The position numbers were made by a program, and so were the translations under genes. A stretch of DNA of 49,111 bases from a virus (lineage: Duplodnaviria; Heunggongvirae; Uroviricota; Caudoviricetes), in the IMG/VR virus record IMGVR_UViG_2529292911_000007; one strand, 5' to 3'. The notes under the pieces are model-generated. The model was not told where the DNA came from and made no database searches. It saw nothing but the letters and a program-made list of their open reading frames with translations. Numbering within the stretch: the stretch's first letter is position 1; each line of letters begins with the position of its first letter. Positions 10,742 to 40,107 of this stretch are shown here, one piece after another.

Positions 10742-10819
10742 TATTTAGGGTTATAGGTCTTAGCCCATTTTAAATGGAAGGCAGACATGCAGCCATGCAT
10801 ACTTCGCATGGCAACATAA

Positions 10820-11248
10820 TTATTTAGACAAACTATCTAATTTTTGCGTCGCTTTTTGTGTTAGGTCGCTGTAACTGATAAACCCTACGTTAGCACCTAC
10901 AATTAACACTAAGAACACTAAGCTGCATATGGATAGAGTGGCAGATTTATGCTTATGGAAAACAAAATATGCTACTATTGCACTTAATATGAAGGAAATG
11001 AATAGAAATATAGATGTTGATGTTTTTAGATATTTTTCAGGAAATAATGGGTGAGCAATAATGTATACAAGATTAAGTAGTATATAAATTGCTACCGGAA
11101 TGAAAATCATGCTCCAGTGTGTATCTTTTTTGGGAGGGATTGGCTGCAAATAATCAGACACCGTTTTTCCATCAGTTTCAAGAAGAATTACTAGATCTCT
11201 TACTTCACCACTGACTTGAGTGCCATCCTTAGTAGTAATGTTAATCAT
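10820..11248 (-). CDS. Small membrane protein with three predicted TM helices (unknown function), distal gene of an AT-rich two-gene module
   Basis: About 45-aa soluble N-terminus followed by three hydrophobic segments (IFIPVAIYILLNLVYIIAHPLF, IFLFISFILSAIVAYFVF, LSICSLVFLVLIVGANVGFI); ATG 11248 overlaps the upstream stop (ATGA); alternative start at 11305. Confidence 0.45.
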   Translation of the reverse strand: MINITTKDGTQVSGEVRDLVILLETDGKTVSDYLQPIPPKKDTHWSMIFIPVAIYILLNLVYIIAHPLFPEKYLKTSTSIFLFISFILSAIVAYFVFHKHKSATLSICSLVFLVLIVGANVGFISYSDLTQKATQKLDSLSK

Positions 11249-11622
11249 TTTTTCCCTCCAAATACGATGCCCTCTACGTCTTTGGAAGCTTTTTGTGATG
11301 ACCACTCCTCTGAATCAGGTGATTTAATTAAAAATATTGTATCTCCATCAAAAATCGTATTTGTTCCGTAAAAATTTACATTTGATAGATCACCACCAAA
11401 AACCCTCTGCCCACTCGAGGTAATTGCCTCACCTAATTTAGTAAAATTACCTGCAATAGATGATTTTCTTTTTCCACTTCTATTCAAAGTGGCTTTAATT
11501 ACACCACCACCATCCTTAGAGTTAAATAATTGAATGTCCACTCCAGCAGTTGGTTGTATATATTTTGAAAGCTCTTTCTTGAACTTGTTAATATATTTAT
11601 CTTTGTTTTCTTTGTTGGTCAT
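11245..11622 (-). CDS. Hypothetical soluble Lys/Gly-rich protein (unknown function), proximal gene of an AT-rich two-gene module
   Basis: 125-aa ORF, AT-rich, antisense to the flanking phage operons; no domain recognised. Confidence 0.45.
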   Translation of the reverse strand: MTNKENKDKYINKFKKELSKYIQPTAGVDIQLFNSKDGGGVIKATLNRSGKRKSSIAGNFTKLGEAITSSGQRVFGGDLSNVNFYGTNTIFDGDTIFLIKSPDSEEWSSQKASKDVEGIVFGGKK

Positions 11623-11794
11623 TGGTTAGATCCATAGTTCTGGCTGTGATTAGGTGAAAGTATACAAGGTTTTTAAAGCGAAGATCACTGTTTTGGCTTC
11701 AAGATAGTTTTGATTTATCGTAATCAATCCGCCATAATCCTCTCATCGGAGCCTGAACAACTCCGGTGACTTCTGCGCATTTAAGGGGACTTAA

Positions 11795-11890
11795 ATGCGA
11801 CCACAATCTGAACTCATCACCTTGTCACAGATGCAGAAATGCACCTGCGATTTTCTGCATTCTGCGGTTTCCGTTAGGGAGGCCGTATGA
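11795..11890 (+). CDS. Small ORF (31 aa) translationally coupled to ybcN; ylcH-like position
   Basis: ATG 11795 with AAGGGGA RBS; stop overlaps the ybcN ATG (gtATGA). Confidence 0.3.
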   Translation: MRPQSELITLSQMQKCTCDFLHSAVSVREAV

Positions 11891-12342
11891 CTCTGCCAGT
11901 AGACGGCATCAAACTCCATCGCGGTAACTTCGCGGCCATCGGCCAGCAGATTCAGCCATTGCTGGATGCCGGGCAATGCTTACGCCTGCAGGTTAAGCCG
12001 TGGCGCGAGAAGCGCAGCCTGTCGCAGAACGCGCTCAGCCACATGTGGTACACGGAGATCAGCGAATATCTCATCGCCCGCGGCAAGACCTTCGCTACGC
12101 CTGAGTGGGTCAAAGACGCGATGAAGCACACCTATCTCGGCTACGAAAGCAAAGACCGTGTAGATGTCGTGTCCGGCGAGGTCACCACCGTCCAATCCCT
12201 CCGCCATACGTCAGAGCTGGAAACCGGCGAGATGTACATCTTCCTGTGCAAAGTCGAAGCCTGGGCGATGAATATCGGCTGCCACCTGACAATTCCGCAG
12301 AGCTGTGAATACCAGCAGCTGCGCGATAAGCAGGAGGCGTAA
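11887..12342 (+). CDS. ybcN: YbcN-like nin-region protein (DLP12 YbcN family)
   Basis: 151 aa MTLPVDGIKLHRGNFAAIGQQ...; size and sequence match DLP12 YbcN as I recall it. Confidence 0.65.
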   Translation: MTLPVDGIKLHRGNFAAIGQQIQPLLDAGQCLRLQVKPWREKRSLSQNALSHMWYTEISEYLIARGKTFATPEWVKDAMKHTYLGYESKDRVDVVSGEVTTVQSLRHTSELETGEMYIFLCKVEAWAMNIGCHLTIPQSCEYQQLRDKQEA

Positions 12343-12513
12343 TGGCTACACCGCTTATTCGTGTCATGAACGGGCACATCTACAGAGTATCAAATCGTCG
12401 TAAGCGTAAGCCTGAGCTGAAGCCATCCGAAATACCAACACTGCTCGGATATACCGCTAGCCTGGTTGATAAAAAATGGTTGCGACTGGCAGCAAGGAGG
12501 AATCATGGCTGAT
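12343..12513 (+). CDS. ninE: NinE-like protein
   Basis: 56-aa ORF ([56 protein letters not shown]) after an AGGAGG RBS; basic, ends like lambda NinE (W.RLA.R). Below the ORF-track length cutoff. Confidence 0.55.
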
Positions 12514-12795
12514 TTGAGAAAAGCAGCGCGTGGTCGGGAATGCCAGGTAAGAATCCCTGGCGTATGTAATGGCAATCCTGAAACGTCAGTACTGGCACAT
12601 ATCCGGCTGGCTGGATTGTGCGGTACCGGTATCAAACCGCCAGACCTGATTGCCACCATTGCATGTTCTGCCTGTCACGACGAAATCGACCGCCGCACAT
12701 ATTTTGTCGATGCTGAGTATGCAAAAGAATGCGCGCTGGAAGGTATGGCGAGAACGCAGGTTATCTGGCTGAAAGAGGGGGTTATTAAGGCGTGA
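12505..12795 (+). CDS. ybcO: YbcO-like protein (DUF1364-like, Cys-rich)
   Basis: 96 aa from ATG 12505 (AGGAGG RBS); cysteine motifs [11 protein letters not shown]...CSACHDE. Confidence 0.6.
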
Positions 12796-13154
12796 ATACC
12801 TACAGCATCACATTACCCTGGCCTCCGAGCAATAACCGCTATTACCGCCATAATCGCGGGCGCACACACATCAGCGCAGAAGGGCAGGCATACCGCGATA
12901 ACGTCACCCGAATCATTAAAAACGCAATGCTGGATATCGGCCTGGCTATGCCAGTGAAAATCCGTATTGAGTGCCACATGCCGGATCGCCGTCGCCGTGA
13001 CCTGGATAATCTGCAAAAAGCCGCTTTTGACGCACTCACCAAAGCAGGTTTCTGGCTGGATGATGCTCAGGTCGTTGATTACCGCGTTGTGAAGATGCCT
13101 GTTACCAAAGGTGGGAGGCTGGAACTGACCATCACCGAAATGGGGAATGAATGA
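12792..13154 (+). CDS. rusA: RusA Holliday-junction resolvase
   Basis: 120 aa; matches the RusA family ([16 protein letters not shown]...[17 protein letters not shown]). Confidence 0.85.
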
Positions 13155-13291
13155 TGTTTGAGTTTTATATGGCAGAACTTCTTCGCCACCGCTGGGGGCA
13201 TCTGCGCTTATATCGTTTCCCCGGTTCTGTTTTGACCGATTACCGAATACTGAAGAATTACGCCAAAACCCTGACAGGAGCAGGAGTATGA
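13151..13291 (+). CDS. ylcG: Small protein, YlcG-like
   Basis: 46-aa ORF overlapping the rusA stop; DLP12-like gene order. Confidence 0.35.
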
Positions 13292-13376: not shown

Positions 13377-13760
13377 ATGCGTGATATTCAGATGGTTCTT
13401 GAGCGTTGGGGAGCGTGGGCGGCTAATAATCATGAAGATGTGACCTGGTCGTCCATTGCCGCCGGTTTTAAGGGATTAATTACTTCAAAAGTAAAATCTC
13501 GCCCGCAATGTTGTGACGATGACGCGATGATTATTTGCGGGTGCATGGCCCGTCTGAAAAAGAACAACAGCGATTTGCACGATTTATTAGTAGATTATTA
13601 TGTAGTCGGTATGACATTCATGTCACTGGCAGGTAAGCATTGCTGCTCTGATGGTTATATCGGGAAAAGGTTACAGAAGGCTGAGGGCATAATTGAAGGG
13701 ATGTTAATGGCATTAGATATCCGGTTAGAGATGGATATCGTTGTTAATAACTCTAATTAA
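13377..13760 (+). CDS. Late-gene antiterminator Q (DLP12 QuuD-like)
   Basis: 127 aa from ATG 13377 (GGAG RBS); sits between the nin genes and the lysis cassette; Cys-rich putative zinc-binding region. Confidence 0.6.
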
Positions 13761-13948
13761 TATGCCAATTGTTTACTAAAAATTATTAAAAATGGGGCGT
13801 TGCAACGCCCCCAAAAATAAAGGGTAATATATAACAGAAGGTTTATATAGTTAGAAGCAAGGTTGTGCTCCTAAAGGAAGTGGCTTGAGGGAGCCACTTA
13901 TATGTTGGGGAGGCAAAGCCTCCCGCAACATATCTTTTAGTAATCAAA

Positions 13949-15031
13949 TTAGAACTGGTAAACCATACCTACAGCAACGATATCATCGGTAGCAACGCCA
14001 GATGCTTTCGTGAAATCGCTCTTATCAATCAGGTTGATTTTGTAATCAACAAAAGTGGACATATTTTTGTTGAAGTAATAGGTTGCACCTACATCAATAT
14101 ATTCAACCAGGTCCTGATCACCCCACGCACCCAAGTCTTTTCCTTTAGATTGCAGGTAAGCAACGGACGGACGCAGACCGAAGTCGAACTGATATTGTGC
14201 AACTACTTCGAAGTTTTGTGCTTTGTTGGCAATATGGTTATTACCAAAAACAGTCATGTTCTGGGTTTCAGAATAGGTGGTAGCCAGATAGATGTTGTTC
14301 GCATCATATTTCAGACCAGCTGCCCATACTTCAGCATTTTGACCAGATGCATTCAGGCTGTTGTTACCGTAGATAACCTGATTATTAGTGCGGTCAGATT
14401 TAGCATAGGTTGCACCTACACCGAATCCTTCATACTCATAAGTAGTGGAGAAACCGAAACCATCACCATTAGCTTCAGTTACGTCAGTGCGGTCATTTTT
14501 ACCCTGATACTGAGCAGCAAAGTTCAGACCATCAACCAGACCAAAGAAGTCGTTGTTACGATAAGTTGCAACACCAGTGGTGCGACCAGTCATGAACACA
14601 TCTGTTTGGGTCCAGGTATCGCCACCGAATTCTGGCAGAACGTCAGTCCACGCACCGATGTCATATGCTACACCGTAGTTACGGCCGTAATCGATTGAGC
14701 CGTAGTCCCCGAATTTCAGGCCTGCAAATGCAAGACGGGTTTTGTCTTTGGAGGAGCCTTGAGATTCAGCGCGGTTGCCTTTGAATTCATATTCCCACTG
14801 ACCGAAACCAGTCAGTTGATCGTTGATTTGGGTTTCACCTTTGAAGCCAAGACGGGCATAAGTAGTATCACCATCATCTGCATCATTAGAGGAGAAGTAG
14901 TGCTTGGCATTAACTTTCCCATATAGATCCAGCTTGTTACTGTCTTTATTATAAATTTCAGCTGCCTGAGCAGACATCGCCATCAGTACTGATGCAGCTA
15001 CAGCAGAAATTGCCACTGTTAATTTTTTCAT
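13949..15031 (-). CDS. nmpC: Outer-membrane general porin (NmpC/OmpD-like)
   Basis: 360 aa with signal peptide ([23 protein letters not shown]) and C-terminal beta-barrel signature ending in F; OmpC/OmpF-family motifs; sits between Q and the holin as in DLP12. Confidence 0.85.
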
Positions 15032-15458
15032 CGTGAGCCCTTTTTTTTGAACTATTATTAAAAAATGATGTCACTGCGCGATAAATATTCATCTAATCAA
15101 TGTGATTATTTCAAGATGTAAGTTTTGGTTTCTCGTTTGATTTGTGAAGTAGATCTCTATTTTTATCTGAACTTTTTTCTATCGAATCCTATTCATGGCT
15201 CTTGGCTGAATAAAAATAAATCTATTAGCCAATTTATATTAACGGCTGTTATTTATAAGTGCTCTGTAATTTGAAGGTTCAATTTAAATCGGCTAAAAAT
15301 AACGCTGGAAATTATTTGCTGGTTATTTGTTGAGATTTGCTTATGTATTTGTAGTGGTGTTTTCAATACTCGGTAGCATTCTCGCAAATATCATTTTGTG
15401 GTTTACGTACGTAAAAAATTGGTTATGCTGTTAAGAGTGGTTACTTCGTCACACAGCT

Positions 15459-15492
15459 TAAACCCGCCGTCGAGCGGGTTTTTCCATTTTTT
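15459..15492 (+). terminator. Rho-independent terminator upstream of the holin (candidate tR')
   Basis: Stem AACCCGC-cgtcga-GCGGGTT followed by TTTCCATTTTTT. Confidence 0.45.
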
Positions 15493-15604
15493 GAGTCTCG
15501 ATATTAGCTGATAACCCAATACCTGAGTTATTCACTGACTCCGAGTCTGTTACGTTTCGTAGTATTCCCTCAATTTACACCCGCTTTGTCTGCGAGGTGG
15601 GGTT

Positions 15605-15820
15605 ATGAAATCCATGGATAAGTTAACAACGGGTGTCGCCTATGGCACCTCAGCAGGTAGTGCCGGTTACTGGTTTTTACAGCTGCTCGATAAAGTCACG
15701 CCCTCACAGTGGGCAGCAATAGGTGTGCTGGGTAGCCTGGTATTTGGCCTGCTGACGTACCTGACAAACCTTTATTTCAAGATTAAAGAAGATAAGCGCA
15801 AGGCTGCGAGAGGTGAATAA
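15605..15820 (+). CDS. essD: Holin (class II, DLP12 EssD-like) with dual-start motif MKSM
   Basis: 71 aa with two hydrophobic segments and a charged C-terminus; ATG overlaps the lysozyme start (TAATG). Confidence 0.8.
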
Positions 15821-16164
15821 TGCCTCCATCATTACGAAAAGCCGTTGCTGCTGCTATTGGTGGCGGAGCAATTGCTATAGCATCAGTGTTAATCACTGGC
15901 CCAAGTGGTAACGATGGTCTGGAAGGTGTCAGCTACATACCATACAAAGATATTGTTGGTGTATGGACTGTATGTCACGGGCATACAGGAAAAGACATCA
16001 TGCTCGGTAAAACGTATACCAAAGCAGAATGCAAAGCACTCTTGAATAAAGACCTTGCCACTGTCGCCAGACAAATTAACCCGTACATCGAAGTCGATAT
16101 ACCGGAAACAACGCGCGGCGCTCTTTACTCATTCGTTTACAACGTGGGTGCTGGCAATTTAGAC
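15820..16164 (+). pseudogene. rrrD: Phage lysozyme (RrrD-like), 5' fragment interrupted by IS2
   Basis: [27 protein letters not shown]... lysozyme N-terminus; the reading frame runs into the IS2 left end at 16160. Confidence 0.8.
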
Positions 16165-16250
16165 TGGCCCCCTGAATCTCCAGACAACCAATATCACTTA
16201 TTTAAGTGATAGTCTTAATACTAGTTTTTAGACTAGTCATTGGAGAGCAG

Positions 16251-16616
16251 ATGATTGATGTCTTAGGACCGGAGAAACGCAGACGGCGTACTACACAGGA
16301 AAAGATCGCTATTGTTCAGCAGAGTTTTGAACCGGGAATGACAGTCTCCCTTGTTGCCCGGCAACACGGTGTGGCAGCCAGCCAGTTATTTCTCTGGCGC
16401 AAGCAATACCAGGAGGGAAGTCTTACTGCTGTGGCCGCAGGAGAACAGGTCGTTCCTGCCTCTGAACTTGCTGCCGCCATGAAGCAGATTAAAGAACTCC
16501 AGCGCCTGCTCGGCAAAAAAACGATGGAAAATGAACTCCTTAAAGAAGCCGTTGAATATGGGCGTGCAAAAAAGTGGATAGCGCACGCGCCCTTATTGCC
16601 CGGGGATGGGGAGTAA
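16251..16616 (+). CDS. insC: IS2 transposase OrfA (InsC)
   Basis: [56 protein letters not shown]... matches IS2 InsC from memory. Confidence 0.9.
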
Positions 16617-16814
16617 GCTTAGTCAGCCGTTGTCTCCGGGTGTCGCGTGCGCAGTTGCACGTCATTCTCAGACGAACCGATGACTGGAAAGATGGTCGCC
16701 GCAGCCGTCACTCAGATGATACGGATGTGCTTCTCCGTATACACCATGTTATCGGAGAGCTGAACCGCCCCGGAAATCCTGGAGACTAAACTCCCTGAGA
16801 AAGAGGTAAACAGG

Positions 16815-17141
16815 ATGACTAAAAATACTCGTTTTTCCCCCGAAGTCCGTCAGCGGGCGATTCGTATGGTTCTGGAAAGTCAGGATGAATATGACTCACA
16901 GTGGGCGGCAATTTGTTCCATTGCCCCAAAGATTGGCTGTACGCCGGAGACTCTGCGTGTCTGGGTTCGCCAGCATGAGCGGGATACCGGGGGCGGTGAT
17001 GGTGGGCTCACCAGCGCTGAACGTCAGCGTCTGAAAGAGCTGGAACGTGAAAATCGTGAACTGCGCCGCAGTAACGATATCCTTCGCCAGGCTTCCGCTT
17101 ATTTTGCGAAGGCGGAGTTCGACCGCCTCTGGAAAAAATGA
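16815..17141 (+). CDS. IS3-family transposase OrfA (HTH)
   Basis: 108 aa [22 protein letters not shown]... with a leucine-zipper-like C-terminus. Confidence 0.85.
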
Positions 17142-18028
17142 TGCCACTGCTGGATAAGCTGCGTGAGCAGTACGGGGTCGGACCGGTATGCAGCGAACTG
17201 CATATTGCCCCGTCAACGTATTACCATTGTCAGCAACAGCGACATCATCCGGATAAACGCAGTGCCCGTGCGCAGCACGATGACTGGCTGAAGAGAGAGA
17301 TACAGCGCGTATACGATGAAAATCATCAGGTGTACGGTGTGCGTAAAGTCTGGCGTCAGTTGTTACGGGAAGGAATCAGGGTGGCCAGATGTACAGTGGC
17401 GCGCCTCATGGCGGTTATGGGACTTGCCGGTGTTCTCCGGGGTAAAAAGGTCCGTACGACCATCAGCCGGAAAGCCGTTGCCGCAGGCGACCGCGTAAAC
17501 CGTCAGTTCGTGGCAGAACGACCTGACCAGCTGTGGGTGGCTGATTTTACTTACGTCAGCACATGGCGGGGCTTCGTCTATGTGGCGTTCATCATTGATG
17601 TGTTTGCCGGATACATCGTGGGGTGGCGGGTCTCATCGTCTATGGAAACGACATTCGTGCTGGATGCGCTGGAGCAGGCGTTGTGGGCCCGTCGTCCGTC
17701 TGGCACCATCCATCACAGCGATAAAGGCTCTCAGTATGTGTCACTGGCCTATACGGAGCGACTAAAAGAAGCCGGATTACTGGCATCAACAGGGAGTACA
17801 GGCGACTCGTATGACAACGCGATGGCTGAGAGCATCAATGGTCTTTACAAAGCGGAGGTAATACACCGTAAGAGCTGGAAAAACCGTGCAGAAGTGGAAC
17901 TGGCCACACTAACGTGGGTGGACTGGTATAACAATCGACGATTGCTGGGAAGGCTGGGCCATACTCCTCCGGCAGAAGCAGAAAAAGCTTATTATGCTTC
18001 CATCGGAAACAATGATCTGGCAGCTTGA
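17138..18028 (+). CDS. IS3-family transposase OrfB (DDE integrase core)
   Basis: 296 aa with a DDE-type catalytic region (WVADFTYV...HHSDKGSQY...DNAMAES); overlaps orfA in the -1 frame. Confidence 0.85.
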
Positions 18029-18803
18029 GTTCACAGATAAAACACTCTCCAGGAAACCCGGGGCGGTTCAAGCTGCCCACATATGGTTATCGTCGGGTAT
18101 GGGCGCTGCTTCGCAGACAGGCCGAACTTGATGGTATGCCTGCGATCAATGCCAAACGTATTTACCGGATCATGCGCCAGAATGCGCTGTTGCTTGAGCG
18201 AAAACCCGCTGTACCGCCATCGAAACGGGCACATACCGGCAGAGTGGCTGTGAAAGAAAGTAATCAGCGATGGTGCTCTGACGGGTTCGAGTTCCGCTGT
18301 GATAACGGAGAAAAACTGCGAGTCACGTTCGCGCTGGACTGCTGTGACCGTGAGGCACTGCACTGGGCGGTCACTACGGGCGGCTTCAACAGTGAAACAG
18401 TACAGGACGTCATGCTGGGAGCGGTGGAACGCCGTTTCGGCAACGAGCTTCCGGCGTCTCCAGTAGAGTGGCTGACGGATAATGGTTCATGCTACCGGGC
18501 TAATGAAACACGGCAGTTTGCCCGGATGTTGGGGCTTGAACCGAAGAACACGGCGGTGCGGAGTCCGGAGAGTAACGGCATAGCAGAGAGCTTCGTGAAA
18601 ACGATAAAGCGTGACTACATCAGTGTCATGCCCAAACCAGACGGGTTAACGGCAGCAAAGAACCTTGCAGAGGCATTCGAGCATTATAACGAATGGCATC
18701 CGCATAGTGCACTGGGTTATCGCTCGCCACGGGAATATCTACGGCAGCAAGCCAGTAATGGGTTAAGTGATAACAGGTGTCTGGAAATATAGGGGCAAAT
18801 CCA

Positions 18804-18966
18804 CAATTTCAGAACATCGACGCTTCTTCGCAAAATAAACCAGGGCGATATCAAAGGCGCATGTGATCAGCTACGTCGCTGGACATATGCTGGCGGTAAG
18901 CAATGGAAAGGTCTCATGACTCGTCGTGAGATTGAGCGTGAAATCTGTTTGTGGGGTCAGCAATGA
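18804..18966 (+). pseudogene. rrrD: Phage lysozyme (RrrD-like), 3' fragment downstream of IS2
   Basis: In-frame continuation ...[51 protein letters not shown] immediately after the IS2 right end and target duplication. Confidence 0.8.
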
Positions 18967-19424
18967 ACAGAGTAACCGCGATTATCTCCGCTCTGGTTAT
19001 CTGCATCATCGTCTGCCTGTCATGGGCTGTTAATCATTACCGTGATAACGCCATTACCTACAAAGCCCAGCGCGACAAAAATGCCAGAGAACTGAAGCTG
19101 GCGAACGCGGCAATTACTGACATGCAGATGCGCCAGCGTGATGTTGCTGCACTGGATGAAAAATACACGAAGGAGTTAGCTAATGCGAAAGCTGAAAATG
19201 ATGCTCTGCGTGATGATGTTGCCGCTGGTCGTCGTCGGTTGCACATCAAAGCAGTCTGTCAGTCAGTGCGTGAAGCCACCACCGCCTCCGGCGTGGATAA
19301 TGCAGCCTCCCCCCGACTGGCAGACACCGCTGAACAGGATTGTTTCACCCTCAGAGAGAGGCTGATCACTATGCAAAAACAACTGGAAGGAACCCAGAAG
19401 TATATTAATGAGCAGTGCAGATAG
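18963..19424 (+). CDS. rzpD: Rz-like spanin (inner-membrane subunit)
   Basis: 153 aa from ATG 18963 overlapping the lysozyme stop; N-terminal TM segment then coiled-coil-like region. Confidence 0.7.
19183..19365 (+). CDS. rzoD: Rz1-like spanin (outer-membrane lipoprotein), embedded in the Rz +1 frame
   Basis: 60 aa with lipobox (LVVVGC) and a proline-rich tract, nested inside Rz. Confidence 0.6.
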
Positions 19425-19455: not shown

Positions 19456-19749
19456 TTATTGTGAGCAATACACACGCGCTTCCAGCGGAGTATAAATGCC
19501 TAAAGTAATAAAACCGAGCAATCCATTTACGAATGTTTGCTGGGTTTCTGTTTTAACAACATTTTCTGCGCCGCCACAAATTTTGGCTGCATCAACAGTT
19601 TTCTCCTGTCCAATTCCCGAAACGAAGAAGTGATGGGTGATGGTTTCCTTTGGTGTTACTGCTGTCGGTTTGTTTCCAACAGTAAACGTCTGTTGAGCAC
19701 ATCCTGTAATAAGCATTGCCAGAGCGGCAGAAAACAACATTTTTTTCAT
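19456..19749 (-). CDS. bor: Bor lipoprotein (serum-resistance family)
   Basis: 97 aa MKKMLFSAALAMLITGCAQQTFTV... with lipobox; matches lambda/DLP12 Bor. Confidence 0.8.
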   Translation of the reverse strand: MKKMLFSAALAMLITGCAQQTFTVGNKPTAVTPKETITHHFFVSGIGQEKTVDAAKICGGAENVVKTETQQTFVNGLLGFITLGIYTPLEARVYCSQ

Positions 19750-20111
19750 CTTATTATCCTGCATTGTTAAAAACGGCAGAATCCTATGTGACAACAATTA
19801 AACGATAGTTAAATGGATTGATGAAAATTAAAACTATATAGGTGTACGCTCAGACTATTGGAGGAAGTTGGGGACACTCAGAATCCTGTGGAATGAAATA
19901 AACCGGTCTATCCGTCTATTACCCTTTTAGCTGCGCTGTATCGTCGCCGTATTCCCGCATTAACCATGACCGTAGCCCGACGGGGAATTCCTTCTGCGTG
20001 AGTGTGCGGGAATAATCAAAAACGATGCACACCGGGTTTTACTGTGCTGACAGACGCAGGGTTACCCTCATAGTCGCTTTTCCGGTGCGATGGTGGAAGA
20101 AACCGGGATGT

Positions 20112-36023: not shown

Positions 36024-39000
36024 ATGGGTAAAGGCAGCAGTAAGGGGCATACCCCGCGCGAAGCAAAGGACAACCTGAAGTCCACGCAGTTGCTGAGTGT
36101 GATCGATGCCATCAGCGAAGGGCCGATTGAAGGTCCGGTGGATGGATTAAAAAGCGTGCTGCTGAACAGTACACCGGTGCTGGACAGTGAGAGGAATACT
36201 AACATCTCCGGTGTCACGGTGGTGTTCCGGGCAGGTGAGCAGGAACAGACACCGCCGGAGGGATTTGAATCATCAGGTTCCGAGACGGTACTGGGTACGG
36301 AAGTGAAATACGACACGCCGATCACCCGGACCATCACGTCGGCAAACATTGACCGTCTGCGCTTTACCTTCGGTGTGCAGGCACTGGTGGAAACCACCTC
36401 AAAGGGGGACAGGAATCCGTCGGAAGTCCGCCTGCTGGTTCAGATACAACGTAACGGTGGCTGGGTGACGGAAAAAGACATCACCATTAAGGGCAAAACC
36501 ACCTCGCAGTATCTGGCCTCGGTAGTGGTGGATAATCTGCCGCCGCGCCCGTTCAACATCCGGATGCGCAGGATGACGCCGGACAGCACCACAGACCAGC
36601 TGCAGAACAAAACGCTCTGGTCGTCATACACCGAAATCATCGATGTGAAACAGTGCTACCCGAACACGGCACTGGTCGGCGTACAGGTGGATTCGGAGCA
36701 GTTCGGCAGCCAGCAGGTGAGCCGTAATTATCATCTTCGCGGGCGTATTCTGCAGGTGCCGTCGAATTATAACCCGCAGACGCGGCAATACAGCGGTATC
36801 TGGGACGGAACGTTTAAACCGGCATACAGCAATAACATGGCCTGGTGTCTGTGGGATATGCTGACCCACCCGCGCTACGGCATGGGTAAACGTCTTGGTG
36901 CGGCAGATGTGGATAAATGGGCGCTGTATGTCATCGGCCAGTGTTGCGACCAGTCGGTGCCGGACGGTTTTGGCGGCACGGAGCCGCGCATCACCTGTAA
37001 TGCCTGGCTGACCACACAGCGTAAGGCGTGGGATGTTCTCAGTGATTTCTGCTCGGCGATGCGCTGTATGCCGGTATGGAACGGGCAGACGCTGACGTTC
37101 GTGCAGGACCGACCATCAGATAAGGTGTGGACCTATAACCGCAGTAATGTGGTGATGCCGGATGATGGCGCGCCGTTCCGCTACAGCTTCAGCGCCCTGA
37201 AGGACCGCCATAATGCCGTTGAGGTGAACTGGATTGACCCGGATAACGGCTGGGAGACGGCGACAGAGCTTGTGGAGGACACGCAGGCCATTGCCCGTTA
37301 CGGTCGTAACGTCACGAAGATGGATGCCTTTGGCTGTACCAGCCGGGGGCAGGCACACCGCGCCGGGCTGTGGCTGATTAAAACGGAACTGCTGGAAACG
37401 CAGACCGTGGACTTCAGCGTGGGTGCCGAAGGGCTTCGCCATGTACCAGGTGATGTCATTGAAATCTGTGATGATGACTATGCGGGGATCAGCACCGGCG
37501 GGCGCGTGCTGGCGGTGAACAGCCAGACCCGGACGCTGACGCTCGACCGTGAAATCACGCTGCCATCCTCCGGTACCACGCTGATAAGCCTGGTTGACGG
37601 AAGTGGCAATCCGGTCAGCGTGGAGGTCCAGTCCGTCACCGACGGCGTGAAGGTAAAAGTGAGCCGTGTTCCTGACGGCGTTGCCGGATACAGCGTGTGG
37701 GGGCTGAAGCTGCCGACGCTGCGCCAGCGCCTGTTCCGCTGCGTGAGTATCCGTGAGAACGATGACGGTACGTATGCCATCACTGCCGTGCAGCATGTAC
37801 CGGAAAAAGAAGCCATCGTGGATAACGGGGCGCACTTTGACGGCGACCAGAGCGACACGGTGAATGGTGTCACGCCGCCAGCAGTGCAGCACCTGACTGC
37901 CGAAGTCACCGCAGACAGTGGGGAGTATCAGGTACTGGCCCGCTGGGATACGCCGAAGGTGGTGAAGGGCGTGAGTTTCATGCTTCGCCTGACCGTGGCA
38001 GCGGATGACGGCAGTGAGCGGCTGGTCAGCACAGCCCGGACGGCGGAAACCACATACCGCTTCACACAACTGGCGCTGGGGAACTACAGGCTGACAGTCC
38101 GGGCAGTAAATGCGTGGGGGCAGCAGGGCGATCCGGCATCGGTATCGTTCCGGATTGCCGCACCGGCAGCGCCGTCGCAGATTGAGCTGACACCGGGGTA
38201 TTTTCAGATAACCGCCACGCCGCATCTTGCGGTTTATGATCCGACGGTACAGTTTGAGTTCTGGTTCTCGGAAACGCGGATTACCGATATCAGGCAGGTT
38301 GAAACCACAGCCCGCTACCTTGGCACGGGGCTGTACTGGATAGCCGCCAGTATCAATATCAAACCGGGCCATGATTATTACTTTTATATCCGCAGTGTGA
38401 ACACCGTTGGCAAATCGGCATTCGTGGAGGCCGTCGGTCGGGCGAGCGATGATGCGGAAGGTTACCTGGATTTTTTCAAAGGCAAGATAACCGAATCCCA
38501 TCTCGGTAAAGGGCTGCTGGAAAAAGTCGACCTGACGGAAGATAACGCCAGCAGACTGGATCAGTTTTCGAAAGAGTGGAAAGACGCCAACGATAAATGG
38601 AATGCCATGTGGGGCGTCAAAATTGAGCAGACCGAAGACGGTAAGCATTATGTCGCGGGACTTGGCCTCAGCATGGAGGATACAGAGGAAGGCAAACTGA
38701 GCCAGTTTCTGGTTGCCGCTAACCGTATCGCGTTTATTGACCCGGCAAACGGGAATGAAACGCCGATGTTTGTGGCGCAGGGCAACCAGATATTCATGAA
38801 CGAAGTGTTCCTGAAACGCCTGACGGCCCCCACCATTACCAGTGGTGGAAATCCACCGGTATTTTCCCTGACACCGGACGGAAAGCTGACCGCTAAAAAT
38901 GCGGATATCAGTGGCAGTGTGAATGCGAACTCCGGGACGCTCAACAACGTCACGATAAATGAAAACTGTACGATTAAGGGTATGCTGGAGGCGAATCAGG

Positions 39001-39437
39001 TCAGAGGTGATTTTGTTAAAACAGTATCCAAATCATTCCCGAAAAAGGCTGGTACGTGGGGTAACACGGAAACACCAGACGGGACGGTTACAGTCACCAT
39101 CAGCGATGATCATAACTTTGACCGTCAAATCATTATTCCGCCCATTATCTTTAACGGTATAGCGTATGACGATCCGGGAAGTGGTGATAACCCGGGAGGT
39201 ACAAGGTACACGGGGTATGGTTTTGAAGTTCGCAAAAACGGCGTATTAATCGCATCCAGAGAAACTAAAGGGGCCATTCCCGGTAGTTACAGTGCGGTTA
39301 TTGATATGCCGAGTGGCAGGGGAAGCGTCACTCTGGAGTTTAAGATTTTCCAGAAAGGCAATCAGGGGGCAGGCAATATCACCGACTGTACGGTGATTGT
39401 GACCAAAAAGGCTGCTTCCGGCATCAGTATTCGTTGA
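36024..39437 (+). CDS. J: Central tail fibre / host-specificity protein J
   Basis: 1137 aa [44 protein letters not shown]...; lambda gpJ over most of its length; the extreme C-terminus appears divergent. Confidence 0.95.
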
Positions 39438-39507: not shown

Positions 39508-40107
39508 ATGCGTAAAGTTTGTGCAGCCATTTTGTCCGCAGCCATCTGTCTGGTCGTATCCGGTGCGCCTGCATGGGCGTCTGAACATCAGTCCACGCTG
39601 AGCGCGGGGTATCTTCATGCCTCGACGAACGTTCCCGGCAGCGATGATCTTAACGGGATTAACGTGAAATACCGTTATGAGTTTACGGACACGCTGGGGA
39701 TGGTGACGTCATTCAGCTATGCAGAAGACAAGAATCGCCAGCTGACTCATTACAGCGATACCCGCTGGCATGAAGATTCCGTGCGTAACCGCTGGTTCAG
39801 CGTGATGGCGGGGCCGTCTGTGCGCGTGAATGAATGGTTCAGCGCGTATGCGATGGCGGGTGTGGCTTACAGCCGTATTTCGACTTTCTCCGGGGATTAT
39901 CTCCGCGTAACTGACAACAAGGGGAAAACGCACGAAGTGCTGACCGGAAGTGATGACGGTCGCCGCAGCAACACGTCTCTGGCGTGGGGGGCTGGCGTGC
40001 AGTTTAACCCGACCGAATCCGTGGCCATTGATATTGTTTATGAAGGCTCCGGCAGTGGCGACTGGCGCACTGACGGTTTCATCGTGGGTGTCGGTTATAA
40101 GTTCTGA
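39508..40107 (+). CDS. lom: Lom outer-membrane protein (Ail/Lom family)
   Basis: 199 aa with signal peptide and beta-barrel pattern ending in YKF; immediately after J as in lambda. Confidence 0.85.
   Translation: MRKVCAAILSAAICLVVSGAPAWASEHQSTLSAGYLHASTNVPGSDDLNGINVKYRYEFTDTLGMVTSFSYAEDKNRQLTHYSDTRWHEDSVRNRWFSVMAGPSVRVNEWFSAYAMAGVAYSRISTFSGDYLRVTDNKGKTHEVLTGSDDGRRSNTSLAWGAGVQFNPTESVAIDIVYEGSGSGDWRTDGFIVGVGYKF

Follow-up and report, generated by a model that had tools for sequence, protein, structure and literature searches.

The intact nmpC/lc porin of lambdoid prophages, its location, its promoter and its small RNA have been known since the 1980s–2000s, and the allele described here is widespread. 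In lysogens of phage PA-2, the phage-borne porin Lc is made, OmpC is reduced and the adsorption of PA-2 is blocked, which is the classic case of lysogenic conversion by a porin. For the gene family of Lc (PA-2) and NmpC (DLP12), lysogenic conversion is well established as the interpretation, and by analogy it may be extended to the locus considered below. Lc belongs to the same family as the phage-borne porin studied here and has an ipeX-like sequence downstream; the likeness between the two is taken from source labels that carry the name 'LC'. In the DLP12 prophage of Escherichia coli K-12, the gene order is quuD–nmpC::IS5–essD, and an IS5 insertion close to the 3' end splits nmpC. Other accessory genes in the late regions of lambdoid phages, such as bor/iss, lom and stx (933W), alter the host surface or virulence, as the porin may. 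OmpD, which belongs to the same porin subgroup, is a major porin of Salmonella according to the cited literature, which does not present it as prophage cargo.

The transcription start site (a 'G') of the K-12 promoter PnmpC was mapped by 5'RACE, and the activity of the promoter was abolished by deletion of the 199-bp stretch before the nmpC ATG (PMC11677980). According to the same paper, CRP activates PnmpC, while OmpR, IHF and MprA repress it and sRNAs contribute to its control; in glycerol minimal medium the K-12 transcript is readily detected, and the IS5 transposase is expressed mainly from this promoter. Expression of nmpC was also reported to raise the sensitivity of the cells to certain colicins and phages (PMC11677980). 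PMC12197685 and PMC5069750 describe ipeX as an sRNA of 167 nt that is part of the transcript of the phage porin and arises from the promoter of the porin gene, and these papers, together with PMC3333887, report that IpeX represses ompC and ompF.

The stretch of DNA analyzed here (hereafter, the window; 49,111 nucleotides of the Caudoviricetes record IMGVR_UViG_2529292911_000007) comes from a lambda-like prophage of E. coli and is collinear with the prophage of strain CV839-06 at an identity of 99.97–100%, apart from differences in IS elements, and the CV839-06 copy, which runs from int through the head and tail genes, adjoins icd. By this collinearity the prophage is placed next to icd, whereas DLP12 adjoins argU. 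The porin gene has the same position and orientation as in DLP12, but it is intact.

We conclude, with a probability of about 0.88, that the gene at positions 13949–15031 (minus strand) is an allele of NmpC/Lc, the porin of lambdoid prophages, that it is intact, and that it forms a self-contained moron of ~1.7 kb between Q and the late promoter, for which a porin-swap mechanism is proposed.

The coding region consists of 360 codons and a stop codon (13951–13949), begins with ATG and, in the open reading frame listing of the window, contains no frameshifts and no internal stops. The Pfam model Porin_1 (PF00267) covers the product end to end (model positions 1–337 of 337, E = 3.1e-153), and because the match spans the full model, this is no chance reading frame. 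In the PDB, the structures of OmpK37, OmpC, OmpK36, PhoE and OmpF match the protein at E values of 1e-108 to 1e-137. The mature chains of the solved porins begin to align at residue 24, which gives a predicted Sec signal peptide of 23 residues (residues 1–23, nt 15031–14963, minus strand), followed by the mature chain (residues 24–360, nt 14962–13952, minus strand), the N-terminus of which, AEIYNKD, fits the pattern AE(I/V)YNKD of the alignment. A 182-aa open reading frame on the plus strand (14150–14698) was also considered as a real gene and was rejected as an antisense shadow of the strongly supported porin.

The charged residues of the porin eyelet, K16, R42, R82, R132, D113 and E117, were established by the crystal structures of OmpF. 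All six are conserved in the phage-borne porin, as K39, R60, R99, R150, D130 and E134, respectively; the PEFGG motif of the constriction loop L3 occupies residues 133–137, and the C-terminus (...VGMVYQF) keeps the terminal Phe, the beta-signal of outer-membrane assembly. The fold, PEFGG, the charge constellation and the C-terminal Phe are common to K-12 OmpC, OmpF, PhoE and OmpN and to Klebsiella OmpK36 and OmpK37; however, the identity to the K-12 paralogues is only 62–68%, and their genomic context is different. Loop L4 is short and without the OmpC-type insertion, and FMTGR stands in place of the FMTKR of PhoE, so that the PhoE-specific Lys before R150 is missing.

An AlphaFold2 model built on 32 homologues (pLDDT 69, pTM 0.69) has 16 long strands and a short N-terminal strand, with L3 at low confidence. 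Using Foldseek, the model was superimposed on OmpC, OmpK36, OmpF and PhoE at TM values of 0.82–0.88.

The porin was aligned with OmpF, OmpC, PhoE and OmpN of K-12 (from NC_000913.3), Salmonella OmpD and one NmpC-type protein, to which it is 62, 64, 65, 68, 82 and 91% identical, respectively. When IS5 and one copy of the 4-bp duplication were removed in silico from K-12 nmpC, a restored NmpC of 365 aa was obtained; the 360-aa porin is 90% identical to it, and the first 148 residues are the same in both. OmpD of Salmonella enterica has the same constriction residues, but its loops differ, and its L6 is longer. Judged by these features of its sequence, the protein is a bona fide general porin with the OmpC/OmpF fold and a member of the NmpC/Lc/OmpD subgroup, and by analogy with its relatives it would assemble as a trimeric, water-filled general-diffusion channel. 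These data agree well with the original prediction, which had described a complete OmpC/OmpF-type porin, NmpC/OmpD-like, with a signal peptide and, unlike the copy in K-12 DLP12, apparently intact; the alignment to nmpC and ompD that it had proposed reveals neither a frameshift nor a premature stop.

The gene could still be a decayed pseudogene, intact in appearance only, as the prophage is degrading (its endolysin gene is disrupted by IS elements) and the K-12 copy of the porin has itself been disrupted by IS5. The sequence refutes this reading: it shows neither a frameshift nor a stop nor a truncation, the HMM match covers the full length, all the diagnostic residues are kept, and the exact 360-aa protein is found on at least 1000 public contigs. 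We regard it as hardly credible.

The name under which the gene is annotated requires a comment. RefSeq names it ompC, and the product scores 518 bits against the cutoff of 484 bits in the NCBIfam 'porin OmpC' subfamily model NF007841, on which basis it might be taken for the ordinary OmpC gene of the host, or its orthologue, and not for phage cargo. Against this, the identity to K-12 OmpC is far below the values for OmpD and NmpC given above. The neighbors of the gene are Q, the holin, RusA, the terminase and other phage genes in a prophage adjoining icd, whereas the ompC locus is marked by micF and rcsD, and the porin is also carried by free phage genomes. Synteny and identity thus refute the orthologue reading, which deserves practically no weight; the RefSeq label follows from a subfamily model (no equivalog) and not from orthology and is therefore misleading for this gene.

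The gene on the left of the porin encodes the antiterminator Q (13377–13760, plus strand; PF06530, E = 4e-53), which is of the QuuD type in the Q21/Q933W family and is 99.7% identical to K-12 quuD at the DNA level. On its right is a phage-21-type holin gene, a homologue of essD (15605–15820, plus strand; PF04971, E = 2e-35). Further left of Q lie the genes for a YbcN family protein, YbcO and RusA, and further right of the holin those for a phage lysozyme and an Rz protein; the YbcN assignment is based on NCBIfam NF007281 and on the RefSeq annotation of a 100%-identical record, while Pfam gives a weak NinB match. The same Q–porin–holin arrangement is present in K-12 DLP12 and in 36 sequenced lambdoid phages. 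The antisense position of the porin between antiterminator and holin and its status as prophage cargo, both proposed earlier, are thus borne out by both flanking genes and by the prophage setting.

Q matches the Q21 structures 6P18/6JNX only distantly (E = 8e-7). For this reason, the late promoter was sought by its homology to the pR'/qut/tR' region of 933W and not by means of the Q21 QBE. In hundreds of Stx phages, the DNA directly 3' of Q matches an 83-bp segment of the porin–holin spacer (15401–15483); the annotations of 933W and VT1-Sakai assign this DNA to pR', qut and the first tR' terminator, with an overlap between Q and pR'. In the window, the homologue of pR' (TTTACG, 16-bp spacer, TATGCT) is at 15402–15429 (plus strand), and the initial transcribed, qut-like segment that follows it to ~15455 (plus strand) aligns with the 933W and VT1-Sakai qut sequences and is invariant. 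A tR'-like intrinsic terminator, the putative target of Q antitermination, was identified at about 15460–15490 (plus strand) by a terminator scan and by the 933W alignment, ~115 nt upstream of the holin start; its stem is that of 933W, and only the loop differs. The pR'/qut/tR' homologue (15402–15490) lies ~170 nt upstream of the holin gene. Among eight relatives, the pR'/qut stretch is the most conserved part of the Q-to-holin module, with a mean pairwise difference of 0.003 compared with 0.09–0.12 beside it.

The DNA homology of Q to the Q genes of Stx phages ends at ~13709, and that of pR' begins at 15401, which indicates that ~1.7 kb (roughly 13710–15400) has been inserted between Q and its promoter. 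Since the porin lies upstream of pR', it is outside the Q-dependent late operon and antisense only to early-right/Q read-through, not to the late transcript. In this it differs from stx of 933W, which is located downstream of pR'/tR' and is Q-dependent, while the porin gene precedes pR', is encoded on the opposite strand and has its own promoter; by comparison with stx, it would be expected to be expressed in the repressed prophage and not upon induction. The explicit mapping of the porin unit upstream of pR' is a mildly useful addition to what is known of this family.

The distribution of the locus was examined using the 2351-bp Q–porin–holin block as a query, the full arrangement being scored where at least 80% of the query was covered in one place. 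Matches were found in 4733 of 5426 complete E. coli genomes, with at least 80% coverage in 2395 of the 5426, and the block is 100% identical in two pig strains of the ETEC type, CV839-06 and ETEC1731. The 90% cluster of the porin has 2741 members, which bear the source names 'porin OmpD', 'outer membrane porin protein LC' and 'porin OmpC'. For the phages ev243 (850–1993) and 3W (1413–2556), the annotation gives two overlapping CDSs in place of one porin gene; the translation is continuous in both (360 aa, MKKLT to YQF), and the division looks like an artefact of annotation or a miscalled upstream start and not like a true frameshift.

The comparison with K-12 shows that the variation is concentrated in the porin gene. 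At the DNA level, the identity is 96.3% in the Q–porin spacer, 98.6% in the porin–holin spacer and 98.6% in the holin gene, compared with 87.1% in the porin coding region, where nearly all the differences fall in the 3' two-thirds and are concentrated in the segments encoding loops L4–L8. The eight phage and prophage alleles that were compared fall into three classes. In these alleles the signal peptide, the barrel core and loops L1, L2 and L3 are almost invariant, and 32 of the 45 variable protein columns lie within the 59 residues of the predicted surface loops L4–L8. The pattern is a familiar one, in which exposed loops diversify or recombine while the channel that bears them stays constrained, and the hypervariability of L4–L8 would be compatible with selection at a phage or colicin receptor interface.

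The 5'UTR and the promoter region of the porin (15032–15160, minus strand) were assigned by their near-identity to K-12; the 199 bp upstream of the porin ATG are 99.5% identical to the K-12 sequence. A standard sigma-70 scan of the DNA from the porin to the holin gave no promoters, and the PnmpC-like and pR'-like hexamers were given only by a relaxed scan. The relaxed pattern places a candidate −10 element, GAATAT, at 15090–15085 and a candidate −35 element, TTGAAA, at 15114–15109, with a spacer of 18 bp, and a pattern scan places a putative CRP-like site at 15158–15143, all on the minus strand. There are G residues 6–8 nt downstream of the candidate −10 element, and the CRP-like site is centered ~72 nt upstream of them.

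In E. coli B, nmpC is reportedly a 'quiescent' porin gene, to use the word in the title of Prilipov et al. 1998. Accordingly, even an intact porin gene may yield little product in many conditions, and the porin of the window might be effectively silent cargo under ordinary conditions, causing no measurable lysogenic conversion. The reported repression of PnmpC by three regulators and its control by sRNAs (PMC11677980) favor such silence, as does the description of nmpC mRNA in the literature as a target of RybB. On the other hand, the nearly identical K-12 promoter gives a readily detected transcript (PMC11677980), and the retention of the intact allele in very many genomes, with conservation of the residues outside the loops, argues for selection on the protein and against quiescence. 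We consider it unlikely that the gene is silent, although silence in many growth conditions is an alternative to be taken seriously.

The porin gene is followed by a 3'UTR of ~165 nt (13784–13948, minus strand), which ends in an intrinsic terminator found by a terminator scan (stem 13811–13794, then a T-run, minus strand). Given its position, its own promoter, its own terminator and the lower G+C content of its DNA (0.30–0.48 across 13800–15400 vs. 0.51–0.57 in the nin region, 11800–13200), the porin unit fits the definition of a moron.

The 3'UTR is 96% identical to the K-12 and 434B sequences and folds as a series of hairpins, with a minimum free energy of −63.2 kcal/mol (z = −8.8 relative to shuffled sequences). 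K-12, 434B and six other phages have almost the same sequence here, and the substitutions are found only in loops or are compatible with G-U pairing. A test of the fold for covariation in eight relatives gave no compensatory pairs, as the sequences are too similar. At the gathering threshold, the only Rfam match in the whole window was the frameshift pseudoknot of an IS3-family element, outside the porin unit, and in the e-value mode the only match in 13700–15650 was a chance one to the Trp leader (E = 0.36). Rfam apparently has no IpeX model, so the identification of IpeX is based on the 96% identity to K-12 and on the literature. Positions 13784–13948 correspond to the published IpeX sRNA region, and the role of this segment as an sRNA is predicted.

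The mean pairwise difference among eight relatives is 0.046 in the 3'UTR and 0.150 in the adjacent porin coding region. This better conservation, the strong secondary structure and the repression of ompC and ompF ascribed to IpeX in PMC12197685, PMC5069750 and PMC3333887 are all in line with the view that the RNA is the main selected function of the unit: IpeX would shut down OmpC and OmpF and block superinfection by OmpC-dependent phages, and the porin would replace the lost permeability. However, the barrel core and the constriction residues are strictly conserved while the loops diversify, which points to selection on a functioning, surface-exposed porin. A unit maintained mainly for its RNA is therefore possible but, in our opinion, unlikely.

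Under the reading that we favor, that of a self-contained porin moron, the cargo unit comprises not only the porin but also a promoter of its own and the IpeX 3'UTR; a porin swap would therefore be expected and not merely an added channel. In the lysogen, transcription of the porin from PnmpC by the host sigma-70 RNA polymerase would not depend on the phage operons, which are repressed; it would be activated by CRP and repressed by OmpR, IHF and MprA, as extrapolated from K-12. After export, the porin would form a trimeric general-diffusion channel, while its 3'UTR would yield IpeX and thereby lower the synthesis of OmpC and OmpF. The net result would be a change in permeability and the removal or replacement of surface receptors, which may exclude OmpC-dependent phages and create sensitivity to phages and colicins specific for NmpC/Lc.

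Phage-borne porins alter traffic and docking at the outer membrane, including the entry of antibiotics and the repertoire of phage and colicin receptors. An intact nmpC/lc gene with a 3'UTR repressing OmpC and OmpF can shift the phage susceptibility and permeability of a strain, which bears on phage therapy and on the interpretation of resistance due to porin loss in ETEC-like strains.

A more far-reaching reading combines two proposals: that the placement of the porin and IpeX is functional and not accidental, and that the loop alleles make up a 'porin serotype' system. According to the first, the unit, placed between Q and pR', converges with the early-right/Q transcript, and N-antiterminated read-through from PR upon induction would run antisense to its full length and silence both porin and IpeX, which would restore OmpC and OmpF and alter the envelope just before lysis. 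According to the second, three or more L4–L8 allele classes could decide, for each lysogen, which phages and colicins are admitted and which are kept out. We consider this combination improbable and mention it as speculation.

Of the neighboring lysis genes, the SAR-endolysin gene (rrrD homologue, 15820–19424) is split at 16164–18803 by an IS2-like element, inside which a 1308-bp IS3-family element is nested (16763–18070). The nested element is the source of the Rfam match, an ALIL frameshift pseudoknot (17096–17212). Because the endolysin gene is disrupted, the prophage is probably defective in lysis and a fixed resident, in which the porin unit would behave as a host gene. In the CV839-06 prophage, the endolysin gene contains only the outer IS element, and the counterpart of positions 10800–11650 carries an IS1 that is missing from the window.

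The prophage has two other outer-membrane morons: a Bor/Iss-type lipoprotein (19456–19797, minus strand; PF06291), encoded just after Rz, and a beta-barrel protein of the Lom/Ail type (39508–40107, plus strand; PF06316), encoded after J. The C-terminal domain of J (38901–39434) is about equally remote from the OmpC-binding gpJ of A8 (9WCA/9WCB) and from the LamB-binding J of lambda, and because the tip diverges from both, the receptor of the prophage is not predictable from sequence.

In the immunity region, an ImmA/IrrE protein (Peptidase_M78; 6147–7286, minus strand) is paired with a DUF4411 protein (L001 11561–12073), and this two-gene accessory cassette, which may serve as an antirepressor-type switch or in defence, adjoins an S24/HTH CI-like repressor (7415–8143). 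Between the replication genes and ybcN there is a block of low GC content (0.33–0.35; 10800–11650), which is possibly another moron. Its minus-strand open reading frames, of 161 aa (apparently a membrane protein) and 125 aa, gave no significant Pfam match; the 161-aa frame has a sub-threshold match to 7TMR-DISM_7TM only.

At the right end of the window (46047–49111, plus strand), a 660-aa AAA_5 ATPase is followed by a McrBC-component-like protein that runs to the window edge; together they look like a McrBC-type restriction pair. Upstream of this pair, on the opposite strand, lies a gene for a membrane acyltransferase (Acyl_transf_3; 43923–44789, minus strand).
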